Shown: positions 1,346 through 57,503 of the stretch, in pieces
How the letters are laid out: every line of letters starts with the position of its first letter
Position numbering within the stretch: the first letter of the stretch is position 1
Sequence record: PZ476263.1
Origin: a phage
Direction: 5' to 3' (one strand)
Length of the DNA: 64,000 nucleotides
Notes under the pieces: generated by a model
Databases searched by the model: none
What the model was told of the DNA's origin: nothing
What the model saw: only the letters and a program-made list of their open reading frames with translations
Position numbers and translations under genes: made by a program

Positions 1346-1348
1346 TTA

Positions 1349-2372: not shown

Positions 2373-2373
2373 A

Positions 2374-3003: not shown

Positions 3004-3091
3004 TTCTTCTCTCCTCTCTGTTGTTTAGATAAGACGTATACTACTCACTTTTAATCTTTAAGTCAATATACTTTATTAAATATTTTCACTT

Positions 3092-3118: not shown

Positions 3119-3127
3119 AAATCATTT

Positions 3128-4174: not shown

Positions 4175-4184
4175 TTATTACTCC

Positions 4185-28155: not shown

Positions 28156-29151
28156 ATGCAAAACGGTGATTTTCAAATTCTGGATTATACTGGCCTGATT
28201 CAAACCCTGCCGCGTGTTGATACCCTGCTGCAAAGCATGAATCTGTTCACTGAGAACTTTGGTCGTACTACTATCGCTAAAATCGAACGTCGTGATGACG
28301 GTGCTGGTCAGATCAATGCTGTTCAGCGTGGTAGCGTTCGTCAGCACCTGGGTAATGATCGTAAAAAGATCGCAAACCTGAACATCCCGTTCTTCCCTCT
28401 GGACCGTTCTATTGACCGTGCTGATATCCAGAACTTCCGTGAATTCGGTACGGATAATGCTCCGGCAACCGTAGAAGCTGAAGTTGCTCGTCACCTGGCT
28501 CGTATTCGTCGTAGCCATGCGGCACTGAAATCCAAAGCAATGTATGCTGCACTGAAGGGTACTTCTTGGTCCCCGAACGATCCGGTTTGTGATTACGACT
28601 ACTACGATGTTTGGGGTGTTACCCAGCAGACCGCCGATATCGACTTCACCGCTCTGGCGGTTGACCCGATTGAAGTTATCGAAGCTGAAGCTCGTGCTCA
28701 CATCATCGATTACGCTGGCGACAGTGGTGACAACTACGAAATCGTAGTTATGGCATCCCGTCAGTGGTTCTCTGCACTGATCGCTCACCCGCAGGTAACT
28801 GGTGCTTACTCTCAGTATCCGTCTACTCAGGAAGTTCTGCGTCGTCGTCTGGGTGGCAATGCTAACAACCGTATCTTCGAACACAAGAACGTGCTGTTCA
28901 TCGAAGATATTTCCGGTAACATCCCAGCTGGTGAAGCTTATATCTTCCCTCGTGGCATCGACCGTATGTTTGAAATCTACTACGCGCCGAGCGACACTCT
29001 GGAAGGTGCTAACCAAGTTGCACAGGAACTGTATGTATTCTTCAAAGAATCTCAGTACCTGCGTGAAGCTAAGATCGAATCTGAAACTTCCTTCCTGACA
29101 GTTAACAACCGCCCTGAGCTGGTAGTTAAGTCAACTGGTAAGTTTGAATAA
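28156..29151 (+). CDS. major capsid protein (lambda gpE-like)
   Basis: 331 aa; highly biased codon usage (CTG, CGT, GGT) typical of abundant virion protein; strong RBS; followed by terminator. Confidence 0.6.
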   Translation: MQNGDFQILDYTGLIQTLPRVDTLLQSMNLFTENFGRTTIAKIERRDDGAGQINAVQRGSVRQHLGNDRKKIANLNIPFFPLDRSIDRADIQNFREFGTDNAPATVEAEVARHLARIRRSHAALKSKAMYAALKGTSWSPNDPVCDYDYYDVWGVTQQTADIDFTALAVDPIEVIEAEARAHIIDYAGDSGDNYEIVVMASRQWFSALIAHPQVTGAYSQYPSTQEVLRRRLGGNANNRIFEHKNVLFIEDISGNIPAGEAYIFPRGIDRMFEIYYAPSDTLEGANQVAQELYVFFKESQYLREAKIESETSFLTVNNRPELVVKSTGKFE

Positions 29152-29168
29152 TTTTAATAACTATCTTA

Positions 29169-29196
29169 AAGGTCACCTTCGGGTGGCCTTTTTTAT
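29169..29196 (+). terminator. intrinsic terminator (UUCG tetraloop)
   Basis: AGGTCACC-ttcg-GGTGGCCT followed by TTTTTTATT. Confidence 0.65.
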
Positions 29197-29213
29197 TATG
29201 CCTGTACATTTTG

Positions 29214-29222
29214 GATAAAATA
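29214..29222 (+). promoter_or_regulatory. late-type promoter element GATAAAATA
   Basis: ttTGGATAAAATAgtg directly after capsid terminator. Confidence 0.4.
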
Positions 29223-29275
29223 GTGTACTATTATAAGATAGGCCCTTAATATAATCAATGACGAAGGAGTTATTA

Positions 29276-29887
29276 ATGTCTAAATCAACTCACTTAGAAA
29301 TCTTTCGAAGTGAATATCACATGCTCAAATTCTTTGGGGAATATCTTGAAAAGTTAGATGTTAATACATCTGCTCGATTGGGAGCTTTCCTTTATAGTTA
29401 TGACGGAAACTTAGTTCTGGCCCGTGGCCTTTATGATTTTCTTTCTCAAATGGAAAAAATGACTGCCTTGGGTATTGATGTTAAATCATCTACTCAGAAA
29501 GGTACTAGCTTCTTGGTATTTTTTAAAGAAAAACCAAAAGCCCCTGAAAAATTCCGTCAAGATGTTAAAAAGATTGAAGCTTTGAAAGAAGCAATTGTAG
29601 TAGCTACTCCAGCTAAAACTATGGAGGAGACTATCCTTGTTTCTACGAAAGTAGAAGAAGAGGGTAAATCTGAAGAGACTGTGGAAGTAGAAGAAAAAGT
29701 TGTTAAGTCTTCTCGTAGTCAAGAAGAAAAAGCAGAGATCTTAGCAAAAGCGGAAGAACTTCGTGATGACAGTAAGAAAGCTGCTGCAAAAGCTGCACTC
29801 GAAGCTTTCGGTATGGAACACGGTGTTTCTCTGAGCAAAGGTAAAACCTTTGATGCGATGTTGGAAGATTTAGCTGCTGCACTTTAA
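29276..29887 (+). CDS. hypothetical structural-region protein
   Basis: AAGGAG RBS before ATG at 29276; charged Lys/Glu/Ala-rich C-terminal half. Confidence 0.4.
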   Translation: MSKSTHLEIFRSEYHMLKFFGEYLEKLDVNTSARLGAFLYSYDGNLVLARGLYDFLSQMEKMTALGIDVKSSTQKGTSFLVFFKEKPKAPEKFRQDVKKIEALKEAIVVATPAKTMEETILVSTKVEEEGKSEETVEVEEKVVKSSRSQEEKAEILAKAEELRDDSKKAAAKAALEAFGMEHGVSLSKGKTFDAMLEDLAAAL

Positions 29888-29940
29888 TCCCGCCTCAAGC
29901 CCCTACTCTGGGGCTTAAATTCCTAGGAGAAATTTAATAA

Positions 29941-32900
29941 ATGTCTGAATACAATGATAAGGTCGTAGAGGCTTTTGTTACTGCCCCAGATCCTGTCGTT
30001 ACTACCAGTGGTGGTGGAGTTATTTTTAACGGTATTGAAACTCGTGATACCGTTTCTACCACTTTGGTTGGTGATGGTACTGTAACTGCGCCTCTTCAAG
30101 CACAAATTCGTGTTTCTCGTCGAGCAGGTAACGCCCTTCAGGTAGTTCAAACTGAAAGTGAACAAGGTCTGTTTGCATCGGCAGGCGAAGCTAAAGTTTC
30201 CGTATCTGCTGTCAACGTTGCAAAATATGTTACAGCTGAAGAAGCTGCAAGTCAAGGTGATGCTGCACTGGAAGGTGTTTTAGTAGAACCTGTTCACTTA
30301 ACCACCACAGCAGCAACATCTGGATTACAGATCAGTGCAGATCCTCTGACTGGTAAAAAATCTCGAATCGGTCTTGTTGTTTCACCTGCTGCCACTAACG
30401 CACTGTCTTTAGAAGAAGATGGTTTGTCTGTTAAAGTGTCTCCAGCTATTGATAACAACATTCAAGTTCGTGAAGGTGCTCTGTATGTTCCTCCGAGCAA
30501 TGCAGAAGTATCTCCTGATTCCGACAACAAGCTTGAATTACGTTCCAATGGTCTTTATGTTGCCACTGTAAAAGGTGACAAAGGCGACCAGGGTGAACAA
30601 GGCCCAGCGGGTCCTCAAGGTGAAGTAGGTCCAGAAGGTCCGCAAGGTCCGGCTGGAGAGAAGGGTGACCAAGGTGAACAAGGACCTCAAGGTGACAAAG
30701 GGGATCAGGGCGTAGCTGGTCCAGCAGGTCCACAAGGTGCTCGTGGTCCAGAAGGTCCTCGTGGTGAAACTGGCTTGGGCATTAATGTTCTGAGTTCTTT
30801 AGACTCGGAAGATCAGTTGCCTTCTGTTGTTGATTTACAGAATGGTGATACCTATGTAATCGGACAAAACTTCTTTACTGTCATCACTGAAGGTGGTGTA
30901 AAACAGTGGAGAAATATTGGTAACTTCGCAGGCCCAGAAGGTCAATCTGCATTTGAAGTTGCTGAGACTGCTGGATTTGTTGGTACTGTAGATGATTGGT
31001 TAGCAAGTCTTCGCGGTGCTGATGGTATCGGTCTTCAGCTTCTTGGCGCTCTGCGTCGTGTGGAAGACTTACCGGAAGAAGGCAACCGACAAGGCGATGC
31101 TTATATCATTCAGGAACAAATGTATGTTTGGACTGGTGATGTAGATCGTTGGCAGATTGTAGGTCAGATTGGCCCAGAAGGTCGTTCTGCTTATCAGGTT
31201 TGGTTGGCGAATGGCAATACTGGATCACAAGTTGACTTCCTTAACTCACTCAAGGGTGAAAAGGGAGATACGGGTGAGCAAGGTCCTCAGGGGGAAAGGG
31301 GCGAAGACGGTAAAAACGCAAACGCAATCAACATCCTTGGTAGTGTAGCTGATGAAGCTTCTCTTCCAGAAGGCGCTGATGCAGGTGATGCCTACCTTAT
31401 TGGGACTAACGTCTTTGTATCAGACGGCGCTGGTAACTGGGAAAATTTGGGATCTTTCCAAGGCCCACAAGGTGATCAGGGTGTTAAAGGTGACAAAGGC
31501 GATAAGGGAGACAAGGGCGATAAAGGTGATAAAGGTGATGACAACTACACCATTGCTGTTGCTAACGGTTTCGTCGGATCTGTAACTGAATACCTTGCGT
31601 CCATTAAGGGTGAGAAAGGTGATGTAGGTGCAACTGGTCCCCGTGGTCTTACTGGTCCACAGGGTGAACAGGGTCCCGTCGGTGCTGGTCTGAATATTCT
31701 CGGATCTTTCGAGGATGAGTCTGAACTGCCAACTTCTGGAATTACCGAAGGTGATGCCTACCTGATCCAAGGATTCCTTTATATCTTTACTGGAGGTTCT
31801 TTTAAGAACGTTGGTGAAGTTAAGGGTCCTAAAGGAGATCAGGGCGATGTAGGACCTGCGGGTCCACAGGGTGAGCAGGGTATTGCGGGACCACAAGGCC
31901 AGCAAGGTTTAGTTGGACCTGCGGGTCCTCAAGGCGAGACTGGTCCACAAGGCCCAGAAGGTCCAGAAGGTCCTCAAGGTCCTCAAGGAGCGCAGGGTGA
32001 AAAAGGCGATATTGGTAGTGGCCTTATTGCTCGTGGAACTGTTGAAACATCTGTGCAATTGCCTAGTGACGCTGCAATCGGTGATTTTTACGTTGTAACT
32101 TCCGAAGGTATTGGCTATGCTTGGGACGGTTCTGATTGGGTAGCCACAGGATTAGCACAAGGACCTATAGGTCCTGCTGGAGCTGATGGTGCCAAGGGTG
32201 AAAAAGGCGACAAAGGAGATCAAGGAGAAAAAGGCGACGCTGGTACAGGTCTGACTCCGAAAGGTCTTGTTGACACATCTTCTGACTTACCTTCTTCTGC
32301 TGAAGTTGGTGATTTCTACGTAGCTGCTGACACTGGTATTGGTTATGCTTGGGACGGCACTTCTTTTGTAGAGTCCGGCACTGTACGTGGACCACAAGGT
32401 GAAGCGGGTCCTCAGGGCGAAGCAGGTCCAGAAGGTCCGCAAGGCCCTCAGGGTGGAATAGGTCCCGTTGGACCAGAAGGTCCGCAAGGTATCGCTGGCC
32501 CTAAAGGGGATAAAGGTGACGTTGGTAGTGGTTTAATCCCTCGTGGAACAATCCCGACTATGGCAGACCTTCCTTTGACTGGTGAAGTTGGTGACTTTTA
32601 CGTAGCCAATGATACGGGAATCGGCTATGCCTTTAACGGGACTGCTTTTATAGAGTCTGGGGTTGCTCGCGGCCCTCAGGGCGAGAAGGGTGAAACTGGT
32701 GCAGTTGGACCGCAGGGTCCGGTTGGTGCTACTGGTGCAATTGGACCGCAGGGTCCTCAGGGTGCTCAAGGTGAACAGGGCATTCAAGGTGAACGAGGAG
32801 AAATCGGTCCTCAGGGTGAGAAAGGTGACACTGGAGAGCAGGGTCCTCAAGGGGATATCGGTCCAGGGGTTGAGATCATCGGTAAATTCGATAACTCTTC

Positions 32901-33729
32901 CGAACTTCCTTCTACTGGTCAATTAGGTCAAGGTTATCTGATCCAAGGTGATTTCTGGGGATGGACAGGTACTGCTTATGAAAACTTAGGTCGTATTCAA
33001 GGTCCTGTAGGCCCTGTAGGTCCGACTGGTAACCAAGGTCCACAAGGTCCTGTCGGTGTTAAAGGGGATAAAGGTGACCAAGGTACTTTGTGGATTGTAT
33101 TCGCAAGGGATCCTTTGGTAAGTGATGGTCGTGTCAACGACTTCTTCCTGAACTCTTCTACTTTGGAATACTTCCGTAAAACGTCTGCAACTAACTGGGC
33201 TTCCCTCGGATACTTGGGTGGTGGTAACGTTTATGATGCACCTGGGGATGGTAAAGCTTACGTCCGTCAAGATCAGGGCTGGTCTGAATTAACTTACCCT
33301 GTCAATGAAGCACCTACCGATGGCGGTGATTATGTTCGTAAGAATGGTACTTGGAGCACTCTGGTTATTCCGGTAACGGAAGCTCCGCTGGAAGGTGGAT
33401 TCTACGTCCGTGAAAACGGTGAGTGGGTGAAACTCGACAAATACGACTTGCGTGTAATTGCTTCTACTGGTGTGGTTGATGCATCTCAGGCCAACAGCTG
33501 GACTTTGGACGGAACAACCAGTAAGTCCTTGGTGATTAATAACCTTCCCGAAGGCCGAGCAATGACTCTTGTACTGAGATTCACTGGTAACGGTGGAAAC
33601 ATTACTTGGGACTCTAAGATCGCATGGTCTAATGGTACAGCACCTGTGCTGGGAGTTACCCGTACTATCCTGACTCTGTTCTGGGATGGTGAGTTCCTTA
33701 CTGGTACTCAAGCAATGACTGTTGGTTAA
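29941..33729 (+). CDS. collagen-like repeat fiber protein (1262 aa)
   Basis: multiple G-X-Y runs ([25 protein letters not shown]...) alternating with eight ~35-aa modules (LP..G..GD.Y.....G..W); C-terminal triple YVR.NG.W repeats. Confidence 0.7.
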   Translation: MSEYNDKVVEAFVTAPDPVVTTSGGGVIFNGIETRDTVSTTLVGDGTVTAPLQAQIRVSRRAGNALQVVQTESEQGLFASAGEAKVSVSAVNVAKYVTAEEAASQGDAALEGVLVEPVHLTTTAATSGLQISADPLTGKKSRIGLVVSPAATNALSLEEDGLSVKVSPAIDNNIQVREGALYVPPSNAEVSPDSDNKLELRSNGLYVATVKGDKGDQGEQGPAGPQGEVGPEGPQGPAGEKGDQGEQGPQGDKGDQGVAGPAGPQGARGPEGPRGETGLGINVLSSLDSEDQLPSVVDLQNGDTYVIGQNFFTVITEGGVKQWRNIGNFAGPEGQSAFEVAETAGFVGTVDDWLASLRGADGIGLQLLGALRRVEDLPEEGNRQGDAYIIQEQMYVWTGDVDRWQIVGQIGPEGRSAYQVWLANGNTGSQVDFLNSLKGEKGDTGEQGPQGERGEDGKNANAINILGSVADEASLPEGADAGDAYLIGTNVFVSDGAGNWENLGSFQGPQGDQGVKGDKGDKGDKGDKGDKGDDNYTIAVANGFVGSVTEYLASIKGEKGDVGATGPRGLTGPQGEQGPVGAGLNILGSFEDESELPTSGITEGDAYLIQGFLYIFTGGSFKNVGEVKGPKGDQGDVGPAGPQGEQGIAGPQGQQGLVGPAGPQGETGPQGPEGPEGPQGPQGAQGEKGDIGSGLIARGTVETSVQLPSDAAIGDFYVVTSEGIGYAWDGSDWVATGLAQGPIGPAGADGAKGEKGDKGDQGEKGDAGTGLTPKGLVDTSSDLPSSAEVGDFYVAADTGIGYAWDGTSFVESGTVRGPQGEAGPQGEAGPEGPQGPQGGIGPVGPEGPQGIAGPKGDKGDVGSGLIPRGTIPTMADLPLTGEVGDFYVANDTGIGYAFNGTAFIESGVARGPQGEKGETGAVGPQGPVGATGAIGPQGPQGAQGEQGIQGERGEIGPQGEKGDTGEQGPQGDIGPGVEIIGKFDNSSELPSTGQLGQGYLIQGDFWGWTGTAYENLGRIQGPVGPVGPTGNQGPQGPVGVKGDKGDQGTLWIVFARDPLVSDGRVNDFFLNSSTLEYFRKTSATNWASLGYLGGGNVYDAPGDGKAYVRQDQGWSELTYPVNEAPTDGGDYVRKNGTWSTLVIPVTEAPLEGGFYVRENGEWVKLDKYDLRVIASTGVVDASQANSWTLDGTTSKSLVINNLPEGRAMTLVLRFTGNGGNITWDSKIAWSNGTAPVLGVTRTILTLFWDGEFLTGTQAMTVG

Positions 33730-33739
33730 TTTTCAATAA

Positions 33740-33760
33740 GGGGGCTTCGGCCCCCATTTT
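33740..33760 (+). terminator. UUCG-tetraloop hairpin, possible terminator/attenuator
   Basis: GGGGGC-ttcg-GCCCCC followed by ATTTT then AAGGAG RBS. Confidence 0.4.
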
Positions 33761-33771
33761 AAGGAGAAGTA

Positions 33772-34407
33772 ATGAGTATTAAAATTTATGGCTGGGTTCC
33801 AATGATTCGTATGTCCGACATGCGTTATCCTGTTTACCTTTCCGACTTTAAAGCTGAATATACCAACGTATCTACCGGAAGCTTCGTCTATGAAGAGGGT
33901 ATGGCTGAATTTGGTTATTACCCTGTTCTTGATGTTGATATTCCGCAAGGTGATGTAGTTACCGAAGGAGCACCAGTTCAAGGTGAGGATGGCAAATGGT
34001 ATAAATCTTGGAACTCTCGTGACTACACCGAAGAAGAGATCGCTGATAACCTTCGTCGTCAAAAAGAACAATTAATCTACTCTGCCAAATCTAATTTCGA
34101 AAATGAAAACATGGGGGGTGTAGAAGTTGATGGTAGTTTCTATTCTGTAGATTCAAATTCACTCTCTCTTTATCATTCTATTCTCTCTGTTGCAGAAATG
34201 TCTGAAGACGACAAATTGTTCAGTCTGTTAACTTACGACAATAAGGTTATCGAACATCTCCGTTTAGATGCAATCGAACTTATTGAAGAAATAATTTCCG
34301 TGTATGTAGAAAGCTACAATAATATGACGGCTTTCATTAAAGAAGTGAATGTTGCAAAAAATATGGAAGAATTACCTTCCGTACCTGAGTCTTTCCGCAT
34401 TGCTTAA
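33772..34407 (+). CDS. hypothetical protein between fiber genes (possible fiber assembly factor)
   Basis: 211 aa ORF, acidic C-terminal half. Confidence 0.35.
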   Translation: MSIKIYGWVPMIRMSDMRYPVYLSDFKAEYTNVSTGSFVYEEGMAEFGYYPVLDVDIPQGDVVTEGAPVQGEDGKWYKSWNSRDYTEEEIADNLRRQKEQLIYSAKSNFENENMGGVEVDGSFYSVDSNSLSLYHSILSVAEMSEDDKLFSLLTYDNKVIEHLRLDAIELIEEIISVYVESYNNMTAFIKEVNVAKNMEELPSVPESFRIA

Positions 34408-34419
34408 TCGAGGTAATAT

Positions 34420-36036
<1,617 letters not shown>

Positions 36037-36074
36037 TTTAATTATAATTCACAGGGACGTGATTAGGAGATAAT

Positions 36075-37658
36075 ATGACGAATTCTGTAGTAGGTATGGC
36101 AGGTCACAATAATGGTGTATTTTATGGATACTCTCTTTATGACTTGGAGCAAAAAAGAAAGATAGCCTTTAAAGATTTAACTAAGGGTGACTCAGGGGCG
36201 AAGGGCGATAAGGGTGATCCTGGTCCAGAAGGTCCACAAGGTGATAAAGGAGATACCGGAGAGCAAGGCCCTGTAGGACCTCAAGGTCCTGCTGGTGCAC
36301 CAGGGCAACAAGGTGTGCCTGGTGAAAGAGGACCTCAAGGTCCCGAAGGCCCACAAGGCCCTCAAGGCCCAATTGGTCCCGAAGGACCAGTAGGACCAAT
36401 CGGCTCCCAAGGTCCCGAAGGTCCTAAAGGAGAGCAAGGTGAACAAGGCCCTTCTGGATCTCAAGGTCCTCAAGGATTAAAAGGGGATACAGGGGCACAA
36501 GGACCTCAAGGTCCCGTTGGACCCAGAGGAGAGACAGGTGCAACAGGACCTGTTGGACCTAAAGGGGACACAGGCCCAACAGGTCCAAAAGGAGAAACGG
36601 GTGAACAGGGACCCATTGGTCCGCAAGGACCTAAGGGTGATACAGGTCCCGTGGGTCCTGCAAGCTTAACCTTCAGAGGTTTCTATGAACCTCTTGAAGA
36701 ATACAACGAAAAGGATACAGTAGCTTATAATGGTTCTACTTATTTTGCGTTAAGAACCAGTACAGGAGCAACACCGGATATTTCTCCCGATGACTGGGCA
36801 TTACTTGCAGCTGAAGGTGCAGTTGGACCACAAGGACCTATGGGACCAGAGGGTCCGCAAGGTATCGCTGGTGCTCAAGGTCAGGAAGGCCCTATAGGAC
36901 CGCAAGGTGAACAGGGTCCGGTTGGACCTGTTGGCCCACAAGGCCCACAAGGTCCTGCGGGTCAGGAAGGAATAGAAGGCCCTCAGGGACCTCAAGGAGA
37001 AGAAGGCCCTATGGGACCTCAGGGACCACAAGGGATTGTAGGACCAACAGGTCCACAAGGCCCTCAAGGCCCCAAAGGGGACACTGGTGCAGTTGGACCA
37101 CAAGGTCCTCAAGGCCAACAAGGTCTTGATGGTCCACAAGGCCCTGCTGGTCCGCAAGGCGAAAGAGGTGTTACTGGACTAACCGGACCCCAAGGTCCCA
37201 AGGGTGATATCGGCCCTGTGGGTCCGGCTGGCCCTCAAGGTAAGGATGGTAATTCTTACACTATCTACAACTGGGGCAACATATCAACGGGCTATGGTGA
37301 GATGGTAATACCTGGTGTTACTAACACAGTATTCAGAGTGAGACGAGTAGGAACCACATTAGAATACAGTGTACTTAGTAAAGGTGGTGCGAATAGATAC
37401 CTTGACTTCCATACCATAATTCCAGCCCCCTCTACAGGGGGCGCTGTAATTATCCAATCAGGAAATACAACATTGACATCCTCCAGCTCTTTAAATGTTG
37501 TTACATCTGCACCTCCTGGTCTTGGTTTTCGACCAATATTCATCTCTTTAAAAGAGTGGGGAGATAGGGCAATAGTAACCATAGAGGTTTTCCACACAGG
37601 TAGAAGTGGAGATTCCAGTTACCCAATACATGTTCGTATGCTAACGACGAAGTATTGA
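36075..37658 (+). CDS. collagen-like fiber protein, paralog B (527 aa)
   Basis: N-terminal [25 protein letters not shown] runs, central [12 protein letters not shown] module, different C-terminal domain. Confidence 0.65.
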
Positions 37659-37662
37659 CATG

Positions 37663-37690
37663 AAAGCCACCTTCGGGTGGCTTTATTTTT
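37663..37690 (+). terminator. intrinsic terminator (UUCG tetraloop)
   Basis: AAAGCCACC-ttcg-GGTGGCTTT followed by ATTTTTAT. Confidence 0.65.
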
Positions 37691-39247: not shown

Positions 39248-39897
39248 TGGATCAACTTCCTAATGAGTTTACCAACTCCGACGAGATTATGGGTAATCTT
39301 ACAAAGACCATCGGTCGTCTATTGAAAGACGTAACCACCTATCGTGTGGTTGAAGCTAATGAAACAATCCCTAAAGTTGAGGGACCTTTCATTCTCGTAG
39401 ATCTTACAGATTTGACCCCTCTCGATTGGGAAACAAATAGTATTGTTGAAGATGGTGTTACCCACACTGTTCACAACTACACCGCAACATATAACCTTAC
39501 GGCATATCGTGGAAAACCTCACTGGGCGTTAACTCGATTCCATCAAGCGTTAAGTTTGGCTTGGATAAGAGATAAATACTTTCCAGTTGGTTCTCCTTTT
39601 GCCTATTCGTCATCTTCATCTATTGCAAGATTAAGAATACCTCTTAATGAACAATATTATGAAAACAGGGCGAGACTGCTTGTTACATTTAACGTTACGT
39701 TCGTTGAAAGTGACTTCGGTCAGTTTGAGGACATTGAAACTATCATCATTAGCACAACGACTGACCCTGAGGGGATCGAGAACGATGCGGTTGTTGATAT
39801 CAATTTTCCACCTGGAGGTGATGTCCCTATGTTGCCACCACAACCTGAACACGAATTAACTTACATCGACACTATCGTCACTGTCAATGAAAAGTAA
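39247..39897 (+). CDS. tail completion / sheath terminator protein (putative)
   Basis: 216 aa, ATGA-type overlap with upstream gene; synteny. Confidence 0.3.
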   Translation: MDQLPNEFTNSDEIMGNLTKTIGRLLKDVTTYRVVEANETIPKVEGPFILVDLTDLTPLDWETNSIVEDGVTHTVHNYTATYNLTAYRGKPHWALTRFHQALSLAWIRDKYFPVGSPFAYSSSSSIARLRIPLNEQYYENRARLLVTFNVTFVESDFGQFEDIETIIISTTTDPEGIENDAVVDINFPPGGDVPMLPPQPEHELTYIDTIVTVNEK

Positions 39898-40007: not shown

Positions 40008-41423
40008 ATGGCTTATGAAGATAAGGTAGTTGACGTCGAGGTAACTCTTGGTACTCAGCCTATTGATACCGTAGGGTTCGAAACCCCGATGTTCTTAGCA
40101 GTTCATAATAACTTCCCAGAACGTGTACGTTTTTATGGATCATTGGAAAGTCTGGTAGGTGATGGTTTTGCAGTTGGTTCAGCTGCTTATCAGTTTGCCT
40201 CGAACGTATTTGCAGGTTCTTTTGCTGCAAGTCTGGTAGGTATCGGACGTATGTCTCTGGCAAGTTCTCGTGTAGATTTTACCGGAACAGTCAATGAAGA
40301 ACGCGTCGTTGTAAATATTACCATCAATGGTACTATTAAAGCAGTAACTATTTCGCTGCAAGTTGGAAACACCCCAGGTCAAGTTGCTACCGCTCTTGCA
40401 ACTGGTATTAATGATGATGTAGACCTCGCAGGTCGAGTTGTTGCTACTGTAGAAAACAGCACTGTTGTAGTGATCCAGTCTGCTGAGAAAGTTAGCATCG
40501 GGAAAGGTGAGGGCACTTATAAGATCGTAAACACCTCTGCTGAAACTGTTGCTACTGTATTGCCTCAGGTTCTGGCTGAAAACCACAACTGGTACTTCCT
40601 GTCCCATGAACAGCGTTCTGATGCAGATATCGTTGCTGCTGCCGAATTTGCTCAGGCAAACTACAAACTGCACGTTTATAACTCCAGCGATTCTGATGCA
40701 CTGGCGGCTGCTAACCAAAGCACCTCTGTCTTTGACACGCTGAAATCTTTGGGTTATAACTCCCTCGGGACCTACGACAAAGATGCAGATGTGGAATATA
40801 CCGAAGGTTCTGTAATCGGTGCAATGGCTGCAAACGATCCTTCTTACGGTGACTCTATCCACCTGAAGACAATGCCTGGTATGGCTCCTTCTACCATCTC
40901 TGAAACTCAGCGTATGAACGCATGGGGACGTAACGCAAACATTTATCGTGCAATGTACGGTACTAACAGCTATATCGAAGGTCGTACTTCCAGCGGTCAG
41001 TATGTTGACGTTATTCGCTTCTCCCACTGGCTGAAGTTCCGTATGGAAGAATCTGTATTTGGTTACATGAAGCGTCGTTCTGATCAAGGTCAGTCCATGA
41101 AGATGAGTGATGAAGATCTTCCGGTTCTGCGTTCTATCCTGTTTAACAACCCAATCAACATCGGTATTCGTAACGGTGGTATCTTGACGGGTTATGACAG
41201 TGTGAACCGTGTAAGCTACGATCCGATTATCACCATCCCACGTCGTGCTGAAATCCCGACTAACGATTTAGCTAACCGTATCCTGCGTGATGTTAAAGTT
41301 GAAGTAGTTTACAACAACTCTCTGCATTACGTCAAAATCCGCGCTGCTGTGGTTCTTGATCGTCCGGCAAATACGACTCAGAGCACCCAAGCTCCTTTCT
41401 CTAACTCTTCTGTAGGGGTGTAA
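40008..41423 (+). CDS. tail sheath protein (putative, P2 FI-like position)
   Basis: 471 aa gene followed by 160-aa tube-size gene, frameshifted chaperone pair and tape measure. Confidence 0.5.
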   Translation: MAYEDKVVDVEVTLGTQPIDTVGFETPMFLAVHNNFPERVRFYGSLESLVGDGFAVGSAAYQFASNVFAGSFAASLVGIGRMSLASSRVDFTGTVNEERVVVNITINGTIKAVTISLQVGNTPGQVATALATGINDDVDLAGRVVATVENSTVVVIQSAEKVSIGKGEGTYKIVNTSAETVATVLPQVLAENHNWYFLSHEQRSDADIVAAAEFAQANYKLHVYNSSDSDALAAANQSTSVFDTLKSLGYNSLGTYDKDADVEYTEGSVIGAMAANDPSYGDSIHLKTMPGMAPSTISETQRMNAWGRNANIYRAMYGTNSYIEGRTSSGQYVDVIRFSHWLKFRMEESVFGYMKRRSDQGQSMKMSDEDLPVLRSILFNNPINIGIRNGGILTGYDSVNRVSYDPIITIPRRAEIPTNDLANRILRDVKVEVVYNNSLHYVKIRAAVVLDRPANTTQSTQAPFSNSSVGV

Positions 41424-50991: not shown

Positions 50992-52626
50992 ATGGCTATA
51001 CCAACTACGCCGATTGTTGTTTTTGCGGCACAAGATGTTAACCTTCCTGGTACTGGAAGACCAAACAAATCAAAACCTATTGATGATCTGTTGGCGAAAG
51101 GTTATGACAAGGGCCAGAAACCTGCGGCGGAAGAATTTAACTATATCCTCCACCAATCTGGAGCTTGGCTTTCTTATATCATCAATGAGAAGTTCCCCGA
51201 GGTAGAAGAGGAATATCGCAGACTAATCAACGAGCTTGAAAATCGTATTAACGAACAGATCACTATTATTCGTCAAGACGTTGCTGCGGTAAGGCAAAAC
51301 GTAATTGAATTACGTCAATACTTGGATCAACAGGTGGCGAATCTTCGTCGTGAGATTACTGCGGTTGACCAACGGGTTACTCGTTTATCTCAAGACTTGG
51401 ATGCGGCTGTTGCTAACCTTACTTCACGTATAGATGCATTGGAGCCTCGTTTAGTTCCAATTGGTGCAATCCTTACATGGGCAGGACAAACCCCGCCTGC
51501 GGGTTATTTAGAGTGTAATGGTCAGGTATACAATACGAACCAAAACCCGAAACTCTATCAAGTTTTAGGAAGAAACGTAGTTCCTGATTATCGTGGTTTG
51601 TTCCTTCGTGGATGGGCGCATGGGTCTAACGCATACGATCCTGATTCTGGTCGTGCATTGGGATCTATTCAGGGCGATGCAATCCGAAACATTACGGGCG
51701 CAATGGGATATGAAAGTATCCGTACTGACCACGGTTATCGTGAAACTGGTGCACTTTATACTCAGTACAATTCCAACAGTGGTCCAGACCATGACCGTAA
51801 AAACCCTGCGGGTGATGTACGGTTTGATGCGAGCCGTGTAGTTCCTACCGCTCCTGAGAACAGACCAAAAAACGCCGCAGTTATGTATATCATAAAAACT
51901 GATCAGGCTCAGGGTACGGGAAGTCTTTCTCCTACGTCCTTGATTACTACACCTGATACGATAACTAACCGTGTTGGATTTACTCAAGGGATTAGTGCTC
52001 AAGTTCTTCCTGCAAACTTAGCTAGTCAGTATCCGGTAACTTGGACATCACAAAACGGTAATGTTGCAACCGTGGATAGTGCAGGTAACGTAAGATTGAC
52101 CGGACCTGGTGAGACGAATATTATTGCCTCTATATCTACGGGATTGTCGGCGCAGGTTAGAATTGTATCCTATACCGCACTAACAAGTATTAGTATTGGC
52201 ACTATTCCAACCATAGAAGTTAACGGGTCTGAAGTTGTACCTATTAACAGAGTACCTGCAAACTCCAATGAACCTCTGGTTTATTCAACCAGTAATGCAA
52301 ACGTGGCAGTAGTTACCCAAGGTGGTTATGTTTCAGGTGTTGCTCCAGGGACAGCTGTTATTACTGTGCGTGGCTCTATTTCTGGCGCTCAAGCTACAAG
52401 ACAGGTAACTGTAATTCCTGCGACTGTTGTTCAAACTATCGAAGATGTTCGTTTAGGTATTGAACAGCAAACCACTATGAACGGTGACAACTACACGAGT
52501 CCAGTTCGTGCTCCGGCAGGTTGTGTTATCACAGGTGTTGTTTCTGCGGGTCTTGGTCTTAACCAAGGTTATTATAAACCAATCCAGAAGCTTATGTCCG
52601 GCGTTTGGGTGACAGTTCAAGGATAA
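50992..52626 (+). CDS. tail fiber protein with coiled-coil stalk, tail-collar-like domain and Ig-like repeats
   Basis: heptad region (RINEQITIIRQDVAAVRQNV...), PIGAILTWAG...YLECNGQ...LYQVLG...PDYRGLFLRG collar-like motif, two Big_2-like segments. Confidence 0.55.
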   Translation: MAIPTTPIVVFAAQDVNLPGTGRPNKSKPIDDLLAKGYDKGQKPAAEEFNYILHQSGAWLSYIINEKFPEVEEEYRRLINELENRINEQITIIRQDVAAVRQNVIELRQYLDQQVANLRREITAVDQRVTRLSQDLDAAVANLTSRIDALEPRLVPIGAILTWAGQTPPAGYLECNGQVYNTNQNPKLYQVLGRNVVPDYRGLFLRGWAHGSNAYDPDSGRALGSIQGDAIRNITGAMGYESIRTDHGYRETGALYTQYNSNSGPDHDRKNPAGDVRFDASRVVPTAPENRPKNAAVMYIIKTDQAQGTGSLSPTSLITTPDTITNRVGFTQGISAQVLPANLASQYPVTWTSQNGNVATVDSAGNVRLTGPGETNIIASISTGLSAQVRIVSYTALTSISIGTIPTIEVNGSEVVPINRVPANSNEPLVYSTSNANVAVVTQGGYVSGVAPGTAVITVRGSISGAQATRQVTVIPATVVQTIEDVRLGIEQQTTMNGDNYTSPVRAPAGCVITGVVSAGLGLNQGYYKPIQKLMSGVWVTVQG

Positions 52627-52631
52627 TAATC

Positions 52632-53144
52632 ATGAGAATGAATAATTTTAAAGTATACTCGCCAGAGGTTAAAGCTTTTGGTGAAGGAGTTCAATATTTT
52701 CAAGATGAAAAGGGAAGGGACTTCTATGAATCTCGTGGACTATTCAAAAAGAAATATGTAGTTTTCTTTGATGAGCACAATATAGTTCGTGGATGGGCAA
52801 AAAGTGAAGAAGTTACCCGTCTTCACCCAGGTGGTTTATCCGTTGTCGACCTGAATACCTTGCCGAAAGAATTTTCTTTACAGGATGGTGTGTGGTCATT
52901 CAATGGGAAACAGGTCGTTAAAGCCGACTATGATCCGGTATTTACCACGGAAGTAAGAAAGGCAGGTATTTTGCAAGTAATTGGGTCTGTTATCGCCCCA
53001 CTTCAAGATGCTGTTGAATTAGGAGAGGCTACGGAAGAAGAGACTGAAAAATACAATCATCTCCGCAGGATGAGAGTTAAAGTCATGCGTATTCCAGATA
53101 GCACTTGCCCCGCCGATATAGACTGGTCAGAGTTTACTGTCTAA
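52632..53144 (+). CDS. tail fiber assembly protein (gpG/Tfa-like), putative
   Basis: immediately after fiber gene; ~170 aa; C-terminal DIDWSEF. Confidence 0.4.
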   Translation: MRMNNFKVYSPEVKAFGEGVQYFQDEKGRDFYESRGLFKKKYVVFFDEHNIVRGWAKSEEVTRLHPGGLSVVDLNTLPKEFSLQDGVWSFNGKQVVKADYDPVFTTEVRKAGILQVIGSVIAPLQDAVELGEATEEETEKYNHLRRMRVKVMRIPDSTCPADIDWSEFTV

Positions 53145-53186
53145 TCTTACATTTATGTCGGGCTTCGGCCCGACTGTGGAGAATCT

Positions 53187-53519
53187 ATGATTGTTGATTT
53201 AATGGCAGTATTAAAAGCACTATGGGGCCTATTAACATTCATTCTTTTAGGTGCACTTAAGATATTTTATTCCGACTTCAAAAAATTGGAGTCCCGTCAA
53301 AGTGAACTTGAAAAGGATGTTCTGCGACTTAAAGAATCTGCGGTCACTAAGGATAGTATTGATGCGATCCTTGACCGAAAAATAAAACATATTACTGATA
53401 CCATTCAAGATATCCGCGAAGATATCACCGACATGAGAAGGGAGGCTAAGGAAGAGAACCATGCTCTTCAGCGTGATATTCGCGAATTGTTGAATAAGAT
53501 CATAGAGGGTCGTAAATGA
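53187..53519 (+). CDS. membrane-anchored coiled-coil protein
   Basis: N-terminal TM (LMAVLKALWGLLTFILLGAL) then charged coiled coil; 110 aa. Confidence 0.4.
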   Translation: MIVDLMAVLKALWGLLTFILLGALKIFYSDFKKLESRQSELEKDVLRLKESAVTKDSIDAILDRKIKHITDTIQDIREDITDMRREAKEENHALQRDIRELLNKIIEGRK

Positions 53520-53974
53520 TTACAGCCATAATATATGGCCTTTGTTTTGTAATCCTTGCAACCCGAAAAGAGAGTGGCACGAAGATGGTGGCGGGGATTT
53601 GCCTCGCCTACCTGATTATCGAAAATATAATTTTGTATTATTTCAGCGGTATGATCGTCTTTGACATTTCTCTTTATTTTAATGTCCTCTGGGCATTGGA
53701 TTCGATACTGCTTTTCACTTTAGGTTGCACAGTGAAAGGATTAAGACAAAAGCTAATAGTCGGACTCAGTATACCTTTTATGCTTGTCCAAGTGTTTGCA
53801 ATCCAATACCCAGAACTTTTCCCTCTTTGGGTGTATGAATTCGCTTTCAAGGATGCCCACAAATATTTCATAGAGGTATTTGTGTTTGTATTTTCTTGGA
53901 AGGATAATACAGTCCCTGAGTGGATCAGAACAGCCATAGTAATATTTCTGGTCTTGATTGCTCATTTGGTCTGA
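53516..53974 (+). CDS. polytopic small membrane protein
   Basis: 152 aa, 4-5 hydrophobic helices; ATGA overlap with upstream gene. Confidence 0.4.
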   Translation: MITAIIYGLCFVILATRKESGTKMVAGICLAYLIIENIILYYFSGMIVFDISLYFNVLWALDSILLFTLGCTVKGLRQKLIVGLSIPFMLVQVFAIQYPELFPLWVYEFAFKDAHKYFIEVFVFVFSWKDNTVPEWIRTAIVIFLVLIAHLV

Positions 53975-53996
53975 ACATTGATAATGAAGGTGATCC

Positions 53997-54257
53997 ATGT
54001 TAAAATTTCTGAAAGACCTAGTAACCTCCGCAATAGAACCAGATAAGGCTTCACATACGAAGTTTTGGTCCAATGTGGGTATGGCAGCTATGACTGCTGT
54101 CTTTTTATGGTATGGGTTTAATAATACATTACCAGAGTGGTACGTTTGGTTGTATGCCCCAACCGTGGTTGCTCCGCACCTGTTGAGTGACCTAATTAAC
54201 CTTCGCTGGGGATTATCTCTTAAAAAGGATAAAGACCCTTCAGACGAAAACAAGTAA
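53997..54257 (+). CDS. holin-like small membrane protein
   Basis: 86 aa, two hydrophobic segments, charged C-terminus KKDKDPSDENK. Confidence 0.35.
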   Translation: MLKFLKDLVTSAIEPDKASHTKFWSNVGMAAMTAVFLWYGFNNTLPEWYVWLYAPTVVAPHLLSDLINLRWGLSLKKDKDPSDENK

Positions 54258-54269
54258 GAGGAGACAACT

Positions 54270-57200
54270 GTGTCGTCTAATACCGATATTTTAGCTTTGC
54301 TTAATACGGAAGCGGATCAAGCTGTGGACCAAATCATTGAAGACTCTAGAAGACTTCACTTGGTGGTCAATGGTACAGGAACAGAACAAGTAGTTACTGA
54401 AGATGGTAGCCTGATTCCTACAATCCGTAAAGCAATTATTGATAATTTTTATTTCAAAACTCCACCTTTACCTTGGAGAAATGGAGGATCGGTTGTTGAG
54501 TTTAACCAACTGTATGCTTTCACCGATCTGAATGGGAATGTATCTTGGTGGTATGCTCCTGGTGCGACGAGTGCTTCTCCTGTTGTGATGAGAGATAGCC
54601 CAATCAATGATGGTAAGTTTAGACCATTCTTTGATAAAGGTAATATTCAAGACACTTACGCTCCGCTTCTTTCTCCGGCTTTCCGTGGAAACCCTACAGT
54701 ACCACTCCCTCCTGAGGGAGATTCTTCCTTTACCATTGCACCAACTGCATGGGTATCTCGCGAAATTGAAAAGGTCCGTGGTGAAATAGTTGAAGAATCT
54801 CGCGGTGAATTTCAAAACATTATTGTAAGGGACGATGCATCTCTTAAAGACCTCTACGTAAGTGGGGAAGCGATCTTTACAAGTGAGAGAATTGCTGCAT
54901 TGGATTCCGAGCTGTCGCTTAAGCGCTTAAGAATGGCAGGTCCACAAGCGGAGATGGCTTTTGAGCAAAATGGATCCTCCCCTGCTGCGGGACTTACCAA
55001 AAAGACAAATATAAAGCCTTATGAAATAACCACTGGCAGGTTCATTTCCAATACTGTGCAGGCTGACGAGATTAAAGTTGGTGATACCTCTCGTTCAGTA
55101 AACAGTTTGGATGTTGAAGGTTACATGCAGGCTGATTATTTACATCTGGAAGGTAATGCCAATAACGATGCGGAAAGACCTCAGTTAATTGTTGACGGCA
55201 TCGCAGAGATTAAAACTCTTCGCGTTATAGATACAATTGAAGGGTTGAAAGCTGACGTTGAAGGTCTAGATATTAACCCCAATAGTGTCGTAGTTGAAAG
55301 AACTTCAAGGGTAAAAGGTGCAGCAACTTTTGATTCTACCGTAAATGTATCCGGCACAACGACTTTAAATAATGTGGTTATTGAAGGTACGCTAACGGGC
55401 GCAGGGATCGGTGTTGACGGAAAAGATATTGCTCCTCGTTCAGTAAATGCGACTTCTGTAACTGTTGCACAAAATCTTAACGTAACTGGTGAGACTTTTG
55501 CAGCTGGGGATATGACTGTAAATAACCTTAGGGTTAACGGTGCACTCATCGCAGATATCGATATTGAGGGAAGTGATCTTAACTTCACCAACATTAACGT
55601 CTCAGAAAAAGCCACAATAAAAGACCTTGAAGTGACAGGAACTGTAACCGGATTTACTGTAAGTGTTGACGGAGAGGATATTTCTCCTGCAACGGTAACA
55701 ACCTCCGGCAATGTAACTGTTGGAAATAACCTTCGTGTCTCTGGCGATCTTACTGTAGATGGTGAACTGGCAATACCTGCCTTAGATACAGGAGAGATCA
55801 CTGCGGGAGATATTTCAGGTAATTCTTTAACCCTCGACGGCGATCTTACCACAGGTCCAGAGTCTACCACTCGTCTTCATAATCTCGTTGTCACAGGAAC
55901 GACCACAGGCCTCACTGTAACAGCGAATGTAGATGGACAAGACATTCTCCCATCCAGTGTCGCTACAGGCAATCTGGATGCATCTGGAGAGGTTTCAGCG
56001 GCATCTCTGTCGGTTACTGGGGCAACGCAAGTAAAAGACCTGAATATTACAGGGACTGTTACCGGATTACAGATCGATCTTTCTGACGAGGCGGTATCTG
56101 TTGATTCAATAACGGCAAGAAGAACTTCCAACTTCGCAGATATTAGTACGACAAATATCACAAATGCTGAAAAGATTACAACTCAGGATTTACAAATCCT
56201 CGGTGATCTTACAGATGCTGACGGTAACCCATTCTATGCCAATGTGACTGGTCAAGACATCTTACCTAACAGTGTTCAATCTGCAACATCTGTCCGAACT
56301 AAAACTTTACGTGTTGAAGAAACATCTCTTCTTGAAGGAACAGTTACTTTAAATAACGGATTGATTGTTACTGACGGGGACATAACTTCAACGCAAGGTA
56401 TTGCAAAGTTTAACGATGTTCAGATATTTGGTTCTTTAACAGATGCGAATGGTAATGGTATTGGCACTGTTGAAAGTATCCAAGGAAGAGATATTGCCCC
56501 TCGAAGTGTTGTGGCTCAAGTTGATGTTCAGGCCGCAGCCTTAGAAATAACAGGGCAGGCACATGTAGGTTCTTTGATTGTTGATGGAGAAACTACAACG
56601 AGCAGCATAAACATTTCAGGTATTGCAACTGCTAATGAAGTTATTGTTGACACGGTAAGGTCTGGTCAGATAACTTCAGGAAACGTAGTAATAACAAGAA
56701 CTGTAGGCTCTTCTGATCCGGCACTTGAAGTACGTGGCCCAGGGCAGATTCAAGGCGATCTCAGTGTTACTGGAACAATCTCTGGAAACATTGACCTGTC
56801 TGCCAAAGATATCAGTGTAAACTCTTTAACCTCAGCAGGAGCTATAACCGGAATATCTGTTTCTTCCAGCACTTCTGTAACTGGATTGTCTGCTACTTTT
56901 GGTGAAGATTACCCTGAAGCACCTGCCTACGGGATTACATCTTTATCTGGTGCAAACATTAATAAAAACCTTCGTGTTGGTGGTAATTTAACTGTTGTTG
57001 GGAACATCTCTGGAAACATTGATCTTAGTGGGAAGACTATCTCTCCGCAAGAGGTTGATGCAACCACGATTGGAGCTACAAATGCCAATCTGACCAACCT
57101 TACAGTTACCGGAAACCTGACTTTACCTTCAGTACCTTTGACTTCTCAAAGTCTTACGGCGGAGGGTCTTGTTAGTGCAGCTAAGTTTAGCACAACTCCA

Positions 57201-57503
57201 AAAGAAAATACAACCAGTTCTTCTACCTACATCCCTGACGGAACTACAAGCGTTTATAACGTTAACGTAGTAAACGATGTGGAAGTAAGAGCACCGTTGA
57301 ATTTGCTTACAAGTGCTAAAGGAGAATCAATTTTCCTGTTCTTCGAACAAGACTCCATCGGAGGTCATGCTGTAACCTTCGGTTCTGATTTTGTTATTCA
57401 TGGAAGTGAAACCATCAACACGGATCCTAGTTCAATAACTGTGGTAAACATGGTTTATCGTGGTAAAGGTCCTTTGATTGACGTTTTCATCACCCGTCGC
57501 TAA
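54270..57503 (+). CDS. long repetitive tail fiber protein (1077 aa)
   Basis: more than 12 tandem ~40-50 aa modules of the form G.DI.P.SV......L.V.G; Thr/Gly/Val-rich. Confidence 0.55.
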   Translation: MSSNTDILALLNTEADQAVDQIIEDSRRLHLVVNGTGTEQVVTEDGSLIPTIRKAIIDNFYFKTPPLPWRNGGSVVEFNQLYAFTDLNGNVSWWYAPGATSASPVVMRDSPINDGKFRPFFDKGNIQDTYAPLLSPAFRGNPTVPLPPEGDSSFTIAPTAWVSREIEKVRGEIVEESRGEFQNIIVRDDASLKDLYVSGEAIFTSERIAALDSELSLKRLRMAGPQAEMAFEQNGSSPAAGLTKKTNIKPYEITTGRFISNTVQADEIKVGDTSRSVNSLDVEGYMQADYLHLEGNANNDAERPQLIVDGIAEIKTLRVIDTIEGLKADVEGLDINPNSVVVERTSRVKGAATFDSTVNVSGTTTLNNVVIEGTLTGAGIGVDGKDIAPRSVNATSVTVAQNLNVTGETFAAGDMTVNNLRVNGALIADIDIEGSDLNFTNINVSEKATIKDLEVTGTVTGFTVSVDGEDISPATVTTSGNVTVGNNLRVSGDLTVDGELAIPALDTGEITAGDISGNSLTLDGDLTTGPESTTRLHNLVVTGTTTGLTVTANVDGQDILPSSVATGNLDASGEVSAASLSVTGATQVKDLNITGTVTGLQIDLSDEAVSVDSITARRTSNFADISTTNITNAEKITTQDLQILGDLTDADGNPFYANVTGQDILPNSVQSATSVRTKTLRVEETSLLEGTVTLNNGLIVTDGDITSTQGIAKFNDVQIFGSLTDANGNGIGTVESIQGRDIAPRSVVAQVDVQAAALEITGQAHVGSLIVDGETTTSSINISGIATANEVIVDTVRSGQITSGNVVITRTVGSSDPALEVRGPGQIQGDLSVTGTISGNIDLSAKDISVNSLTSAGAITGISVSSSTSVTGLSATFGEDYPEAPAYGITSLSGANINKNLRVGGNLTVVGNISGNIDLSGKTISPQEVDATTIGATNANLTNLTVTGNLTLPSVPLTSQSLTAEGLVSAAKFSTTPKENTTSSSTYIPDGTTSVYNVNVVNDVEVRAPLNLLTSAKGESIFLFFEQDSIGGHAVTFGSDFVIHGSETINTDPSSITVVNMVYRGKGPLIDVFITRR

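Follow-up and report, generated by a model that had tools for sequence, protein, structure and literature searches.

Collagen-like genes between the capsid and neck genes of a Vequintavirinae-like phage: putative head fibers and a candidate tail-docked fiber

Collagen-like decoration of a phage capsid is known from SPP1, in which gp12, a 64-aa (amino acid; 6.6 kDa) collagen-like trimer, sits at hexon centers, is non-essential, binds reversibly with temperature, and is encoded beside the major capsid protein (MCP) gene. In the cryo-electron microscopy (cryo-EM) structure of Pectobacterium phage phiTE, the putative "Pagoda" protein pTE217 was placed at the centers of capsid hexamers (Hodgkinson-Bean et al. 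2025; PMC11972413), and cryo-EM of phi24B showed that the DUF1737 domain of gp84 binds the central pore of capsid hexons (bioRxiv 10.64898/2026.04.10.717836). Here, we analyze three collagen-like genes that lie between the capsid and neck genes in a 64,000-nt stretch of phage DNA (sequence record PZ476263.1; hereafter, the window). The window originates from a ~140-kb Vequintavirinae-like myovirus of the phiTE type. Its closest GenBank genomes are the Escherichia coli phages LTH01, A7_1, A5-4, and UPEC06 (81-86% nucleotide identity over part of the region); phiTE and the Cronobacter CR3-type phages are remoter relatives. The three open reading frames (ORFs) are exactly those that a sequence-only reading had given, with 1262, 538, and 527 codons for residues, all on the plus strand. 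We refer to their products as COL-A, COL-B, and COL-C.

29941-33729, plus strand: COL-A, 1262-aa composite fiber, predicted trimeric (Pfam Collagen, E 1.1e-44; Fibritin_C, 33.5 bits; PHROG 3904 'tail fiber protein')
33772-34407, plus strand: 211-aa partner gene of COL-A, non-collagen (DUF4376 / tail-assembly-chaperone-like, divergent)
34420-36036, plus strand: COL-B, 538-aa collagen fiber, putative head fiber (Pfam Collagen, E 4.6e-43)
36075-37658, plus strand: COL-C, 527-aa collagen fiber, putative head fiber and recently acquired paralog (Pfam Collagen, E 1.2e-48)

We propose, with a probability of about 0.6, that the terminator-bounded cassette at 29168-37684 encodes two separate accessory fiber systems, COL-B and COL-C being head fibers at hexamer centers and COL-A probably being docked on the tail. 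The sequence-only reading had offered head fibers or side tail fibers for the three genes as one group. Both locations survive in our proposal, the single group does not: the genes form two unrelated systems, for which the head (COL-B and COL-C) and the tail (COL-A) are the more likely sites. The trimer state, attachment sites, and ligand binding of the COL proteins given below are those that we infer.

The N-terminal anchor of COL-B and COL-C

COL-B and COL-C follow a common plan: an N-terminus of ~36 aa, a collagen block, an insert of ~50 aa, a second collagen block, and a C-terminal tip. Their N-termini, termed type 2, are located as follows.

34420-34527, plus strand: COL-B N-terminal type-2 anchor, 36 aa (hhalign against the Pagoda-type N-termini; BLASTP against pTE217)
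36075-36185, plus strand: COL-C N-terminal type-2 anchor, 37 aa (same profile evidence as COL-B; core shared with VR26 gp244)

The slot 3′ of the homologue of the 211-aa gene (216 aa in phiTE) and 5′ of the adaptor gene holds pTE217 in phiTE and CB7, and the same syntenic slot is occupied by COL-B and COL-C in the window, whose MCP is 89% identical to that of phiTE. [quoted passage not shown] We found that pTE217 matches the COL-B/C N-terminus by BLASTP (E 0.001 over 37 aa), and hhalign comparison of type-1 (Pagoda-type) with type-2 (COL-B/C) N-termini gave a probability of 93.7% (E 1.8e-7). Bridging proteins in SSBI34, CR3, and several IMG/VR contigs, such as SSBI34_518, a 103-aa protein of CR3, and a 222-aa protein of contig L016, combine an N-terminus near-identical to that of pTE217 with G-X-Y repeats that follow directly; the bridging genomes also encode a second gene with a COL-B/C-type N-terminus. 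Beyond the homologous ~30 residues, the proteins differ. pTE217 is a collagen-free protein of 164 aa, its location itself putative, with a C-terminal domain of its own (PHROG 20253, E 2e-113) that the COL-B and COL-C tips do not match; in its place, COL-B and COL-C have collagen (~300 residues) together with a CBM5/12-like module and unrelated tips.

As the sole part conserved in all slot proteins, the N-terminus is the natural candidate for the virion-attachment element. The slot protein of PVP-SE1 matches PHROG families labeled 'head fiber protein', and SPP1 gp12 has close analogues in the type-1 slot proteins of CR3 and SSBI34, which are short (103-115 aa, 11-13 triplets). COL-B and COL-C are likened to gp12 by description, not by sequence: they have in common a central collagen-like segment and a gene in the capsid module, whereas COL-B and COL-C have ~8 times the length of gp12 and, in addition, a CBM-like insert and a globular tip. 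That the fiber genes should encode components of the virion is borne out in CB7, where tandem mass spectrometry (MS/MS) of virions confirmed CB7_10, CB7_11, and CB7_12, the homologues of the long fiber, the 211-aa protein, and the slot protein, respectively.

From these sequence comparisons, COL-B and COL-C are most likely ~85-nm trimeric head fibers with hypervariable tips. Each would form a homotrimeric collagen triple-helix stalk, with the CBM5/12-like module midway and a variable beta-sandwich tip at the end, and would bind the centers of capsid hexamers through the conserved ~36-residue anchor. A T=13 capsid has 120 hexamers, and the fibers could project from up to all of them. The collagen stalk implies a trimer, and a trimer placed on a six-fold site would explain the disordered, asymmetric contact density of the Pagoda. 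Binding to surface glycans, those of the host or of its surroundings, would be weak, multivalent, and reversible and would make encounters more frequent, which is a role like that of Hoc. The two genes, each with its own tip, would confer two specificities, with the tip exchanged horizontally as a module. The proposed hexamer-center site and weak glycan adhesion are points of likeness to T4 Hoc, as is the Inh-like gene in the window cassette. Hoc differs in being a monomer of immunoglobulin-like (Ig-like) domains a few nanometers long, whereas COL-B and COL-C are predicted to be ~85-nm collagen trimers and have no string of Ig domains.

Searches with the anchor (tblastn, together with a scan of IMG/VR) found it only in Vequintavirinae-like and T4-like lineages. 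This distribution bears on a different arrangement, in which COL-B and COL-C are branches of one branched fiber and their N-termini dock on COL-A or on the 211-aa protein. Gene order would suit such a fiber: slot genes always lie 3′ of the fiber-partner pair in Vequintavirinae-type genomes, all the genes belong to one terminator-bounded unit, and rV5, which has no fiber, has no slot gene either. However, the T4-like phages VR5, VR7, VR25, VR26, and JS10 possess the cassette or anchor, and no homologue of COL-A or of the 211-aa partner was found in them, which argues against docking of the anchor on COL-A; contig L015 has the fiber and its partner but no slot gene; and the abundance of pTE217 cited above is far higher than expected for a branch of a fiber. 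We therefore regard the branched arrangement as very improbable. An attempt to decouple the slot gene from the fiber by means of rV5 was uninformative, because fiber, partner, and slot gene are missing there together.

Stalks, tips, and a mobile cassette

The remaining parts of COL-B and COL-C comprise collagen, an insert, and a tip.

34933-35079, plus strand: COL-B CBM5/12-like insert, between the two collagen blocks
35566-36036, plus strand: COL-B tip domain, 156 aa, orphan
36663-36815, plus strand: COL-C CBM5/12-like insert, a member of the six-member insert alignment
37257-37658, plus strand: COL-C tip domain, 133 aa, predicted 10-strand beta-sandwich

With Pfam Collagen (PF01391), whose cutoff is 27.2 bits, COL-A, COL-B, and COL-C score 150, 145, and 163 bits. 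Counting runs of at least four G-X-Y triplets, the three proteins contain 128, 99, and 102 triplets, in single runs of up to 54, with chiefly Pro at X and chiefly Gln, Lys, or Thr at Y; in shuffles of the COL-A residues, a 6-triplet run was reached in only 42 of 1000. The first collagen block has 45 triplets in COL-B and 53 in COL-C, and the second has 54 and 49. Collagen rises by 0.286 nm per residue, so the stalks would measure ~85-88 nm if extended. Among relatives, stalks differ about three-fold in length; a type-2 slot protein of 808 aa on an IMG/VR contig (L011, 8047-10473) has ~167 G-X-Y triplets, equivalent to ~140 nm if extended.

In all the relatives that were examined, the G-X-Y runs have stayed in frame, and the GC-rich islands described in the sequence-only reading are present: collagen-coding DNA has 58.3% GC, compared with 43.5% in the non-collagen parts of the same genes and 40.3% in the rest of the window. 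By codon position, the collagen-coding DNA has 85%, 62%, and 28% GC at positions 1, 2, and 3. The excess, confined to positions 1 and 2, thus reflects Gly and Pro codons, and foreign DNA was rejected as its source. Also rejected was membership in the Scl1, Scl2, or Lcl families of bacterial adhesins (NCBIfam), which scored 151-207 bits against cutoffs of 325-500 and matched in G-X-Y regions only.

The orthologous inserts match Pfam CBM_5_12 (PF02839) in six of six cases (best E 2.9e-6). The COL-B insert scores 26.3 bits when scanned alone and 21.3 bits within the full-length protein, with a gathering cutoff of 26.2. N-termini and inserts stay alignable among six orthologous slot genes, which nevertheless bear five unrelated tips (at most 26% identity). 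In a PHROG scan, the COL-C tip matched only PHROG 5073 and the COL-B tip had no match; the latter also had no tblastn match in 50,697 phage records and no match in the PDB. Word-indexed protein searches returned 1 and 4 matches for the tips, which yielded a shallow multiple sequence alignment and a structure model of only moderate quality. The unrelated tips, the CBM5/12-like modules, and one recent horizontal gain lend indirect support to the idea that these proteins are determinants of host interaction.

The horizontal gain concerns COL-C. The closest relatives of the locus are the metagenomic contigs L033 and L034, in which COL-A is 96% identical and a single slot gene (546 aa) is present. 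The window is collinear with them to position 34674 and again from 37633 onward, the interval 34675-37632 being replaced. In L034 (10649-12289), the slot gene was called as pieces of 78 and 430 aa, because of a frameshift or assembly error inside the collagen repeats. COL-C is 96-100% identical, from the first collagen block to the tip, to A5-4_226, the single slot gene of A5-4, whereas the COL-A proteins of these phages share only 76% identity. Judged by these identities, COL-C is a recent horizontal acquisition placed next to the resident gene COL-B. The suggestion that repetitive DNA is a substrate for length variation receives weak support: block lengths do differ by whole triplets, but tip replacement and gene gain dominate, and the DNA-level tandem repeats are short and imperfect (periods of 9-54 nt, 2-8 copies, 63-95% match). 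Variation in the COL genes thus stems mainly from the exchange of modules and not from slippage within repeats.

The COL-C tip is also present in T4-like phages and in siphoviruses of ~47 kb. In the T4-like JS10 and VR26, where tip identity is 39-57%, the COL-C-type gene belongs to the hoc locus and has hoc, a Hoc-like gene, and inh as neighbors. The complete architecture of COL-C is found in VR26 gp244, with an 11-residue anchor core identical to that of COL-C; for the N-terminus of JS10, a type-2 anchor is not claimed (hhalign probability 7.7%). Two tandem genes for the vertex protein gp24 and two Hoc-type genes stand beside the collagen gene in both phages (JS10, L029 1019-3585; VR26, L035 669-3233), making the locus rich in paralogues of capsid accessory genes. 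The siphovirus AugustePiccard encodes the same cassette in bas01_0010, with an N-terminal DUF1737 and a tip 46% identical to that of COL-C, directly upstream of the MCP gene. Compared with DUF1737, the COL-B/C anchor is different and much shorter, and DUF1737 of phi24B binds as a hexamer, whereas a collagen stalk implies trimers. The neighboring bas01_0009 (L030, 4591-5880), named 'head outer capsid protein', is a GDSL esterase (Pfam E 4e-13), which parallels the capsid-decorating esterase gp84 of phi24B. Sequence comparison thus indicates one mobile collagen-CBM-tip cassette joined to three capsid-display contexts: the Pagoda-type anchor, DUF1737, and the hoc locus.

Several points weigh against placing COL-B and COL-C at hexamer centers. 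The Pagoda assignment of pTE217 is putative, based on abundance, and made without a built model; the shared anchor region spans only ~30 residues, and the profiles were built from 7 and 9 sequences. Phages whose MCP belongs to another family (T4 gp23-type) have this anchor too, and these T4-like carriers also encode Hoc, an occupant of hexamer centers. An anchor shared across two MCP families could be either a generic hexamer-center contact or a motif with another job, such as trimer nucleation. No protein of this window has been localized, and head fibers of ~85 nm on these phages are unreported in the literature surveyed.

The genes might instead all encode ordinary lateral tail fibers, located at the baseplate or distal tail and binding receptors, with their position in the genome an accident of module insertion. 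GenBank and RefSeq orthologues are named 'tail fiber protein' or 'side tail fiber protein', and PHROG 3904 and 5073 carry tail fiber labels; these names, however, have spread from similarity of collagen and tips, not from experiments. Collagen shafts do occur in proven lateral tail fibers, for example phi24B gp61, and in prophage side tail fibers (Ghosh 2012). The tail-assembly-chaperone-like partner of COL-A and a third, unmodeled fiber in the phiTE baseplate network would also fit. Against this view stand the homology of the COL-B/C anchor to the abundant capsid protein pTE217, the presence of the cassette within the hoc locus in T4-like phages, and the siphovirus cassette fused to a hexon-binding DUF1737 beside the MCP gene; in addition, the baseplate module of the window (50992-57503) already has two canonical fibers and a Tfa. 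On balance, we consider it unlikely that all three are lateral tail fibers, and we favor head fibers for COL-B and COL-C. A broader proposal goes further: long collagen "hairs" on hexamers would be a widespread, overlooked class of head fibers, a mobile cassette on interchangeable anchors misnamed as tail fibers, with COL-A docking by imitation of the sheath strand S4 described below. We put this forward tentatively, at somewhat short of even odds.

Relatives already have collagen-like genes annotated at this locus, under the names "tail fiber" or "collagen triple helix repeat", and collagen-like decoration of hexon centers is known from SPP1 gp12. New relative to the literature surveyed are the homology of the COL-B/C anchor to the Pagoda protein, the occurrence of one cassette in three capsid-display contexts, the implied fiber length, and the sheath-strand-like N-terminus of COL-A. 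Genes usually labeled "tail fiber" at this locus are probably in part head decoration. If COL-B and COL-C do sit at hexamer centers, the capsids of therapeutic-candidate coliphages would bear up to 120 long, exchangeable, ligand-binding fibers, and host-range and pharmacokinetic studies would currently be overlooking capsid fibers annotated as tail fibers. The unmodeled Pagoda density of phiTE would be placed in a protein family and could be tested as a trimeric anchor at a site of six-fold symmetry; three solutions to capsid display would be tied together by one cassette; and such fibers would be a natural scaffold on which capsids could display long trimeric payloads.

COL-A and its 211-aa partner

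COL-A belongs to a family (PHROG 3904) distinct from that of COL-B and COL-C, and is built as a beaded fiber.

29947-29985, plus strand: COL-A residues 3-15, EYNDKVVEAFVTA, candidate mimic of the sheath S4 hinge strand (comparison with the sheath N-terminus)
30574-33090, plus strand: COL-A beaded shaft, with 10 collagen segments (128 triplets), eight knobs of ~46 aa, and three helical motifs of ~22 aa
33214-33438, plus strand: three tandem foldon-like units, COL-A residues 1092-1166 (PDB phmmer matches)
33439-33729, plus strand: COL-A C-terminal tip, ~96 aa, conserved with phiTE_215 (PHROG 3904, 19200, and 9017)

We consider it more likely that COL-A is a tail-associated fiber, on the basis of its chaperone-like partner and its sheath-strand-like N-terminus. 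The 211-aa gene lies directly downstream of a COL-A-type fiber in most of the loci fetched, including those of Vequintavirinae and several jumbo phages. On contig L025, the partner gene of a fiber-partner pair ends a tail module; in the jumbo-phage loci L017, L018, and L024, the upstream neighbor of the partner is a paralogue of ~300 aa, and the long fiber is further off. An AlphaFold2 model of the partner (predicted local distance difference test score, 92) was searched with Foldseek against BFVD and matched DUF4376 and 'phage tail assembly chaperone' proteins, with 42 matches at E ≤1e-3; the best named match was a Noxifer DUF4376 protein (E 4e-17, template-modeling score 0.89). By sequence, 4 of 21 members of the partner family match Pfam DUF4376 (PF14301), and the window's own protein is not one of them. 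Foldseek against the PDB gave only a prefoldin-beta-like hairpin at E 0.12, which is not significant. The partner homologue CB7_11 is retained in CB7 virions.

Modules of a tail fiber and a downstream assembly chaperone are familiar from lambda Stf/Tfa, Mu S/U, and T4 gp37/gp38. COL-A likewise precedes a small conserved gene, and the two travel together between phage lineages; in contrast to those modules, the COL-A pair lies between head and neck genes, and the N-terminus of the fiber is more like a sheath strand than a baseplate-binding domain. Taken together, the adjacency and the DUF4376/tail-assembly-chaperone fold match give the pair the look of a fiber with its assembly chaperone or cap. 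COL-A would be a trimeric fiber folded or capped by the DUF4376-type partner encoded directly downstream.

The N-terminus, too, suggests a link to the tail. COL-A starts with MSEYNDKVVEAFVT and the tail sheath with MAYEDKVVDVEVT, and the same pairing is seen in phiTE, SSBI34, and PVP-SE1. Of 95 ORFs in the window, the one that matches the sheath N-terminus best is COL-A (score 34, compared with 29 for the next; shuffle p ~1e-3), and the DNA upstream of COL-A is unrelated to that upstream of the sheath gene. The signature Y.D.[VI]V.[VA] occurs at only three sites in the ~20,500 residues of the window ORFs: the N-terminus of COL-A (29947-29985), the N-terminus of the sheath (40008-40061), and the C-terminus of the tail terminator (39862-39885). 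The phiTE structure shows residues E3-L15 of the sheath as strand S4 of the hinge sheet between subunits, and a C-terminal extension of the tail terminator replaces S4 at the top of the tail. We hypothesize from this resemblance that COL-A docks on the sheath lattice by S4-strand mimicry, probably with its own N-terminal strand copying the hinge strand. Against this hypothesis, the signature was defined post hoc, the shuffle p value of ~1e-3 comes from a single genome, and the terminal S4 positions are already taken by the tail terminator in the phiTE connector model, whose hinge sheets are complete. The phiTE baseplate fiber network contains a third, unmodeled fiber that contacts the long tail fiber (PMC11972413). 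COL-A may correspond to this third fiber, whose gene is unnamed in the main text of that paper. If real, sheath-strand mimicry would be a new mode of hanging accessories on a contractile tail and could identify the third fiber.

The first 211 residues of COL-A are beta-rich, with repeated motifs of the type "S..(G)N.L......GLYV"; we take them to resemble triple beta-spiral shafts. Along the shaft, the eight knobs align with an invariant LP..G..Y..G..G..GP.G; a relationship of the knob repeats to the CBM5/12-like insert was rejected (hhalign probability 1.8%). The foldon-like units matched chains of the T4 fibritin foldon and foldon-tagged constructs in PDB searches with phmmer. They are 48-50% identical to the 27-residue T4 foldon, with A6, P7, G10, Y13, V14, R15, W20, and L23 invariant, and Pfam Fibritin_C (PF07921) matches COL-A residues 1081-1119 over model positions 54-92 only (33.5 bits; cutoff 21). 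The units stand directly after the last collagen segment, where a trimerization nucleus is needed, a position that suits nucleation of the triple helix from the C-terminus; engineered collagen-foldon fusions (PDB 1nay and 9gfr) have the same collagen-then-foldon arrangement. In COL-A, the units differ from the fibritin foldon in being internal, triplicated, and followed by a tip, and the shaft consists of collagen and knobs rather than of a coiled coil.

The foldon-like units raise the alternative that COL-A is a capsid or neck appendage, such as a fibritin-like collar or whisker or a vertex fiber, that handles long tail fibers or senses the environment. Three units of this hallmark of T4 fibritin are present, and the gene lies beside adaptor and neck genes, as does wac in T4; the phiTE authors, moreover, propose that the long tail fiber bends toward the capsid and contacts the third fiber. 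Yet COL-A has no coiled-coil shaft and no similarity to the N-terminal domain of fibritin, neither collar nor whisker density was reported for the phiTE connector reconstruction, and the DUF4376-type partner, like the S4-like strand, favors the tail. An appendage of the capsid or neck therefore seems to us improbable, although attachment to the neck-proximal sheath would blur the distinction between it and the tail-docked fiber that we favor.

PDB sequence searches with the partner profile, the COL-A N-terminal domain, and the tips of COL-B and COL-C returned nothing significant, which indicates that the phiTE depositions do not include these proteins. The jumbo-phage contexts of COL-A homologues (PCH45 and RAY) were unannotated and gave no location for the fiber. 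On the jumbo-phage contigs L019-L022 (about 1200-6900), the long fiber has a different N-terminus (ISGMDSL..SGDEF.EV.R..PDG..KNYR) that is shared by a smaller neighboring ORF, suggesting a common attachment module for several fibers.

Cassette boundaries and neighboring genes

The five genes of the cassette are enclosed as one unit by two strong intrinsic terminators, each with an annotated counterpart in phiTE: one at the position matching 29168-29191, the other after phiTE_217.

28156-29151: major capsid gene (Phage_cap_E, E 8e-39)
29168-29191, plus strand: intrinsic terminator 3′ of the MCP gene, with a 10-bp stem, 5 GC pairs, and a T-run; upstream boundary of the cassette
29258-29887, plus strand: Inh-like head protein, 209 aa, non-collagen (PHROG 3259; weak match to PHROG 1051 'inhibitor of protease')
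37663-37684, plus strand: intrinsic terminator 3′ of COL-C, with a 9-bp stem, 5 GC pairs, and a T-run; downstream boundary of the cassette

The picture of three genes in a row straight after the capsid gene therefore needs correction. They do lie between the capsid and neck genes, with the adaptor, head-completion, tail-terminator, and sheath genes beginning at 37716. Two genes intervene, however: the 209-aa Inh-like gene, together with the upstream terminator, stands between the MCP gene and COL-A, and the conserved 211-aa non-collagen gene separates COL-A from COL-B, so the arrangement is not strictly tandem.

The L033 ortholog of the Inh-like protein carries a precomputed match to Pfam PF26097 (Phage_Inh_N). 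The placement of an inh-like gene beside putative hexamer-decoration genes in the window parallels the hoc-inh locus found in T4-like phages; in rV5, the region homologous to the 209-aa gene consists of two small genes. Antisense and off-frame ORFs of up to 315 aa overlap the collagen genes (34684-35631, 31420-31905, and 36801-37157 on the minus strand, and others). These are by-products of G-X-Y codon periodicity and not genes. Downstream of the 1077-aa tail fiber gene, a 410-aa gene at 57542-58774 (PHROG 15692) is a candidate for an additional fiber component.

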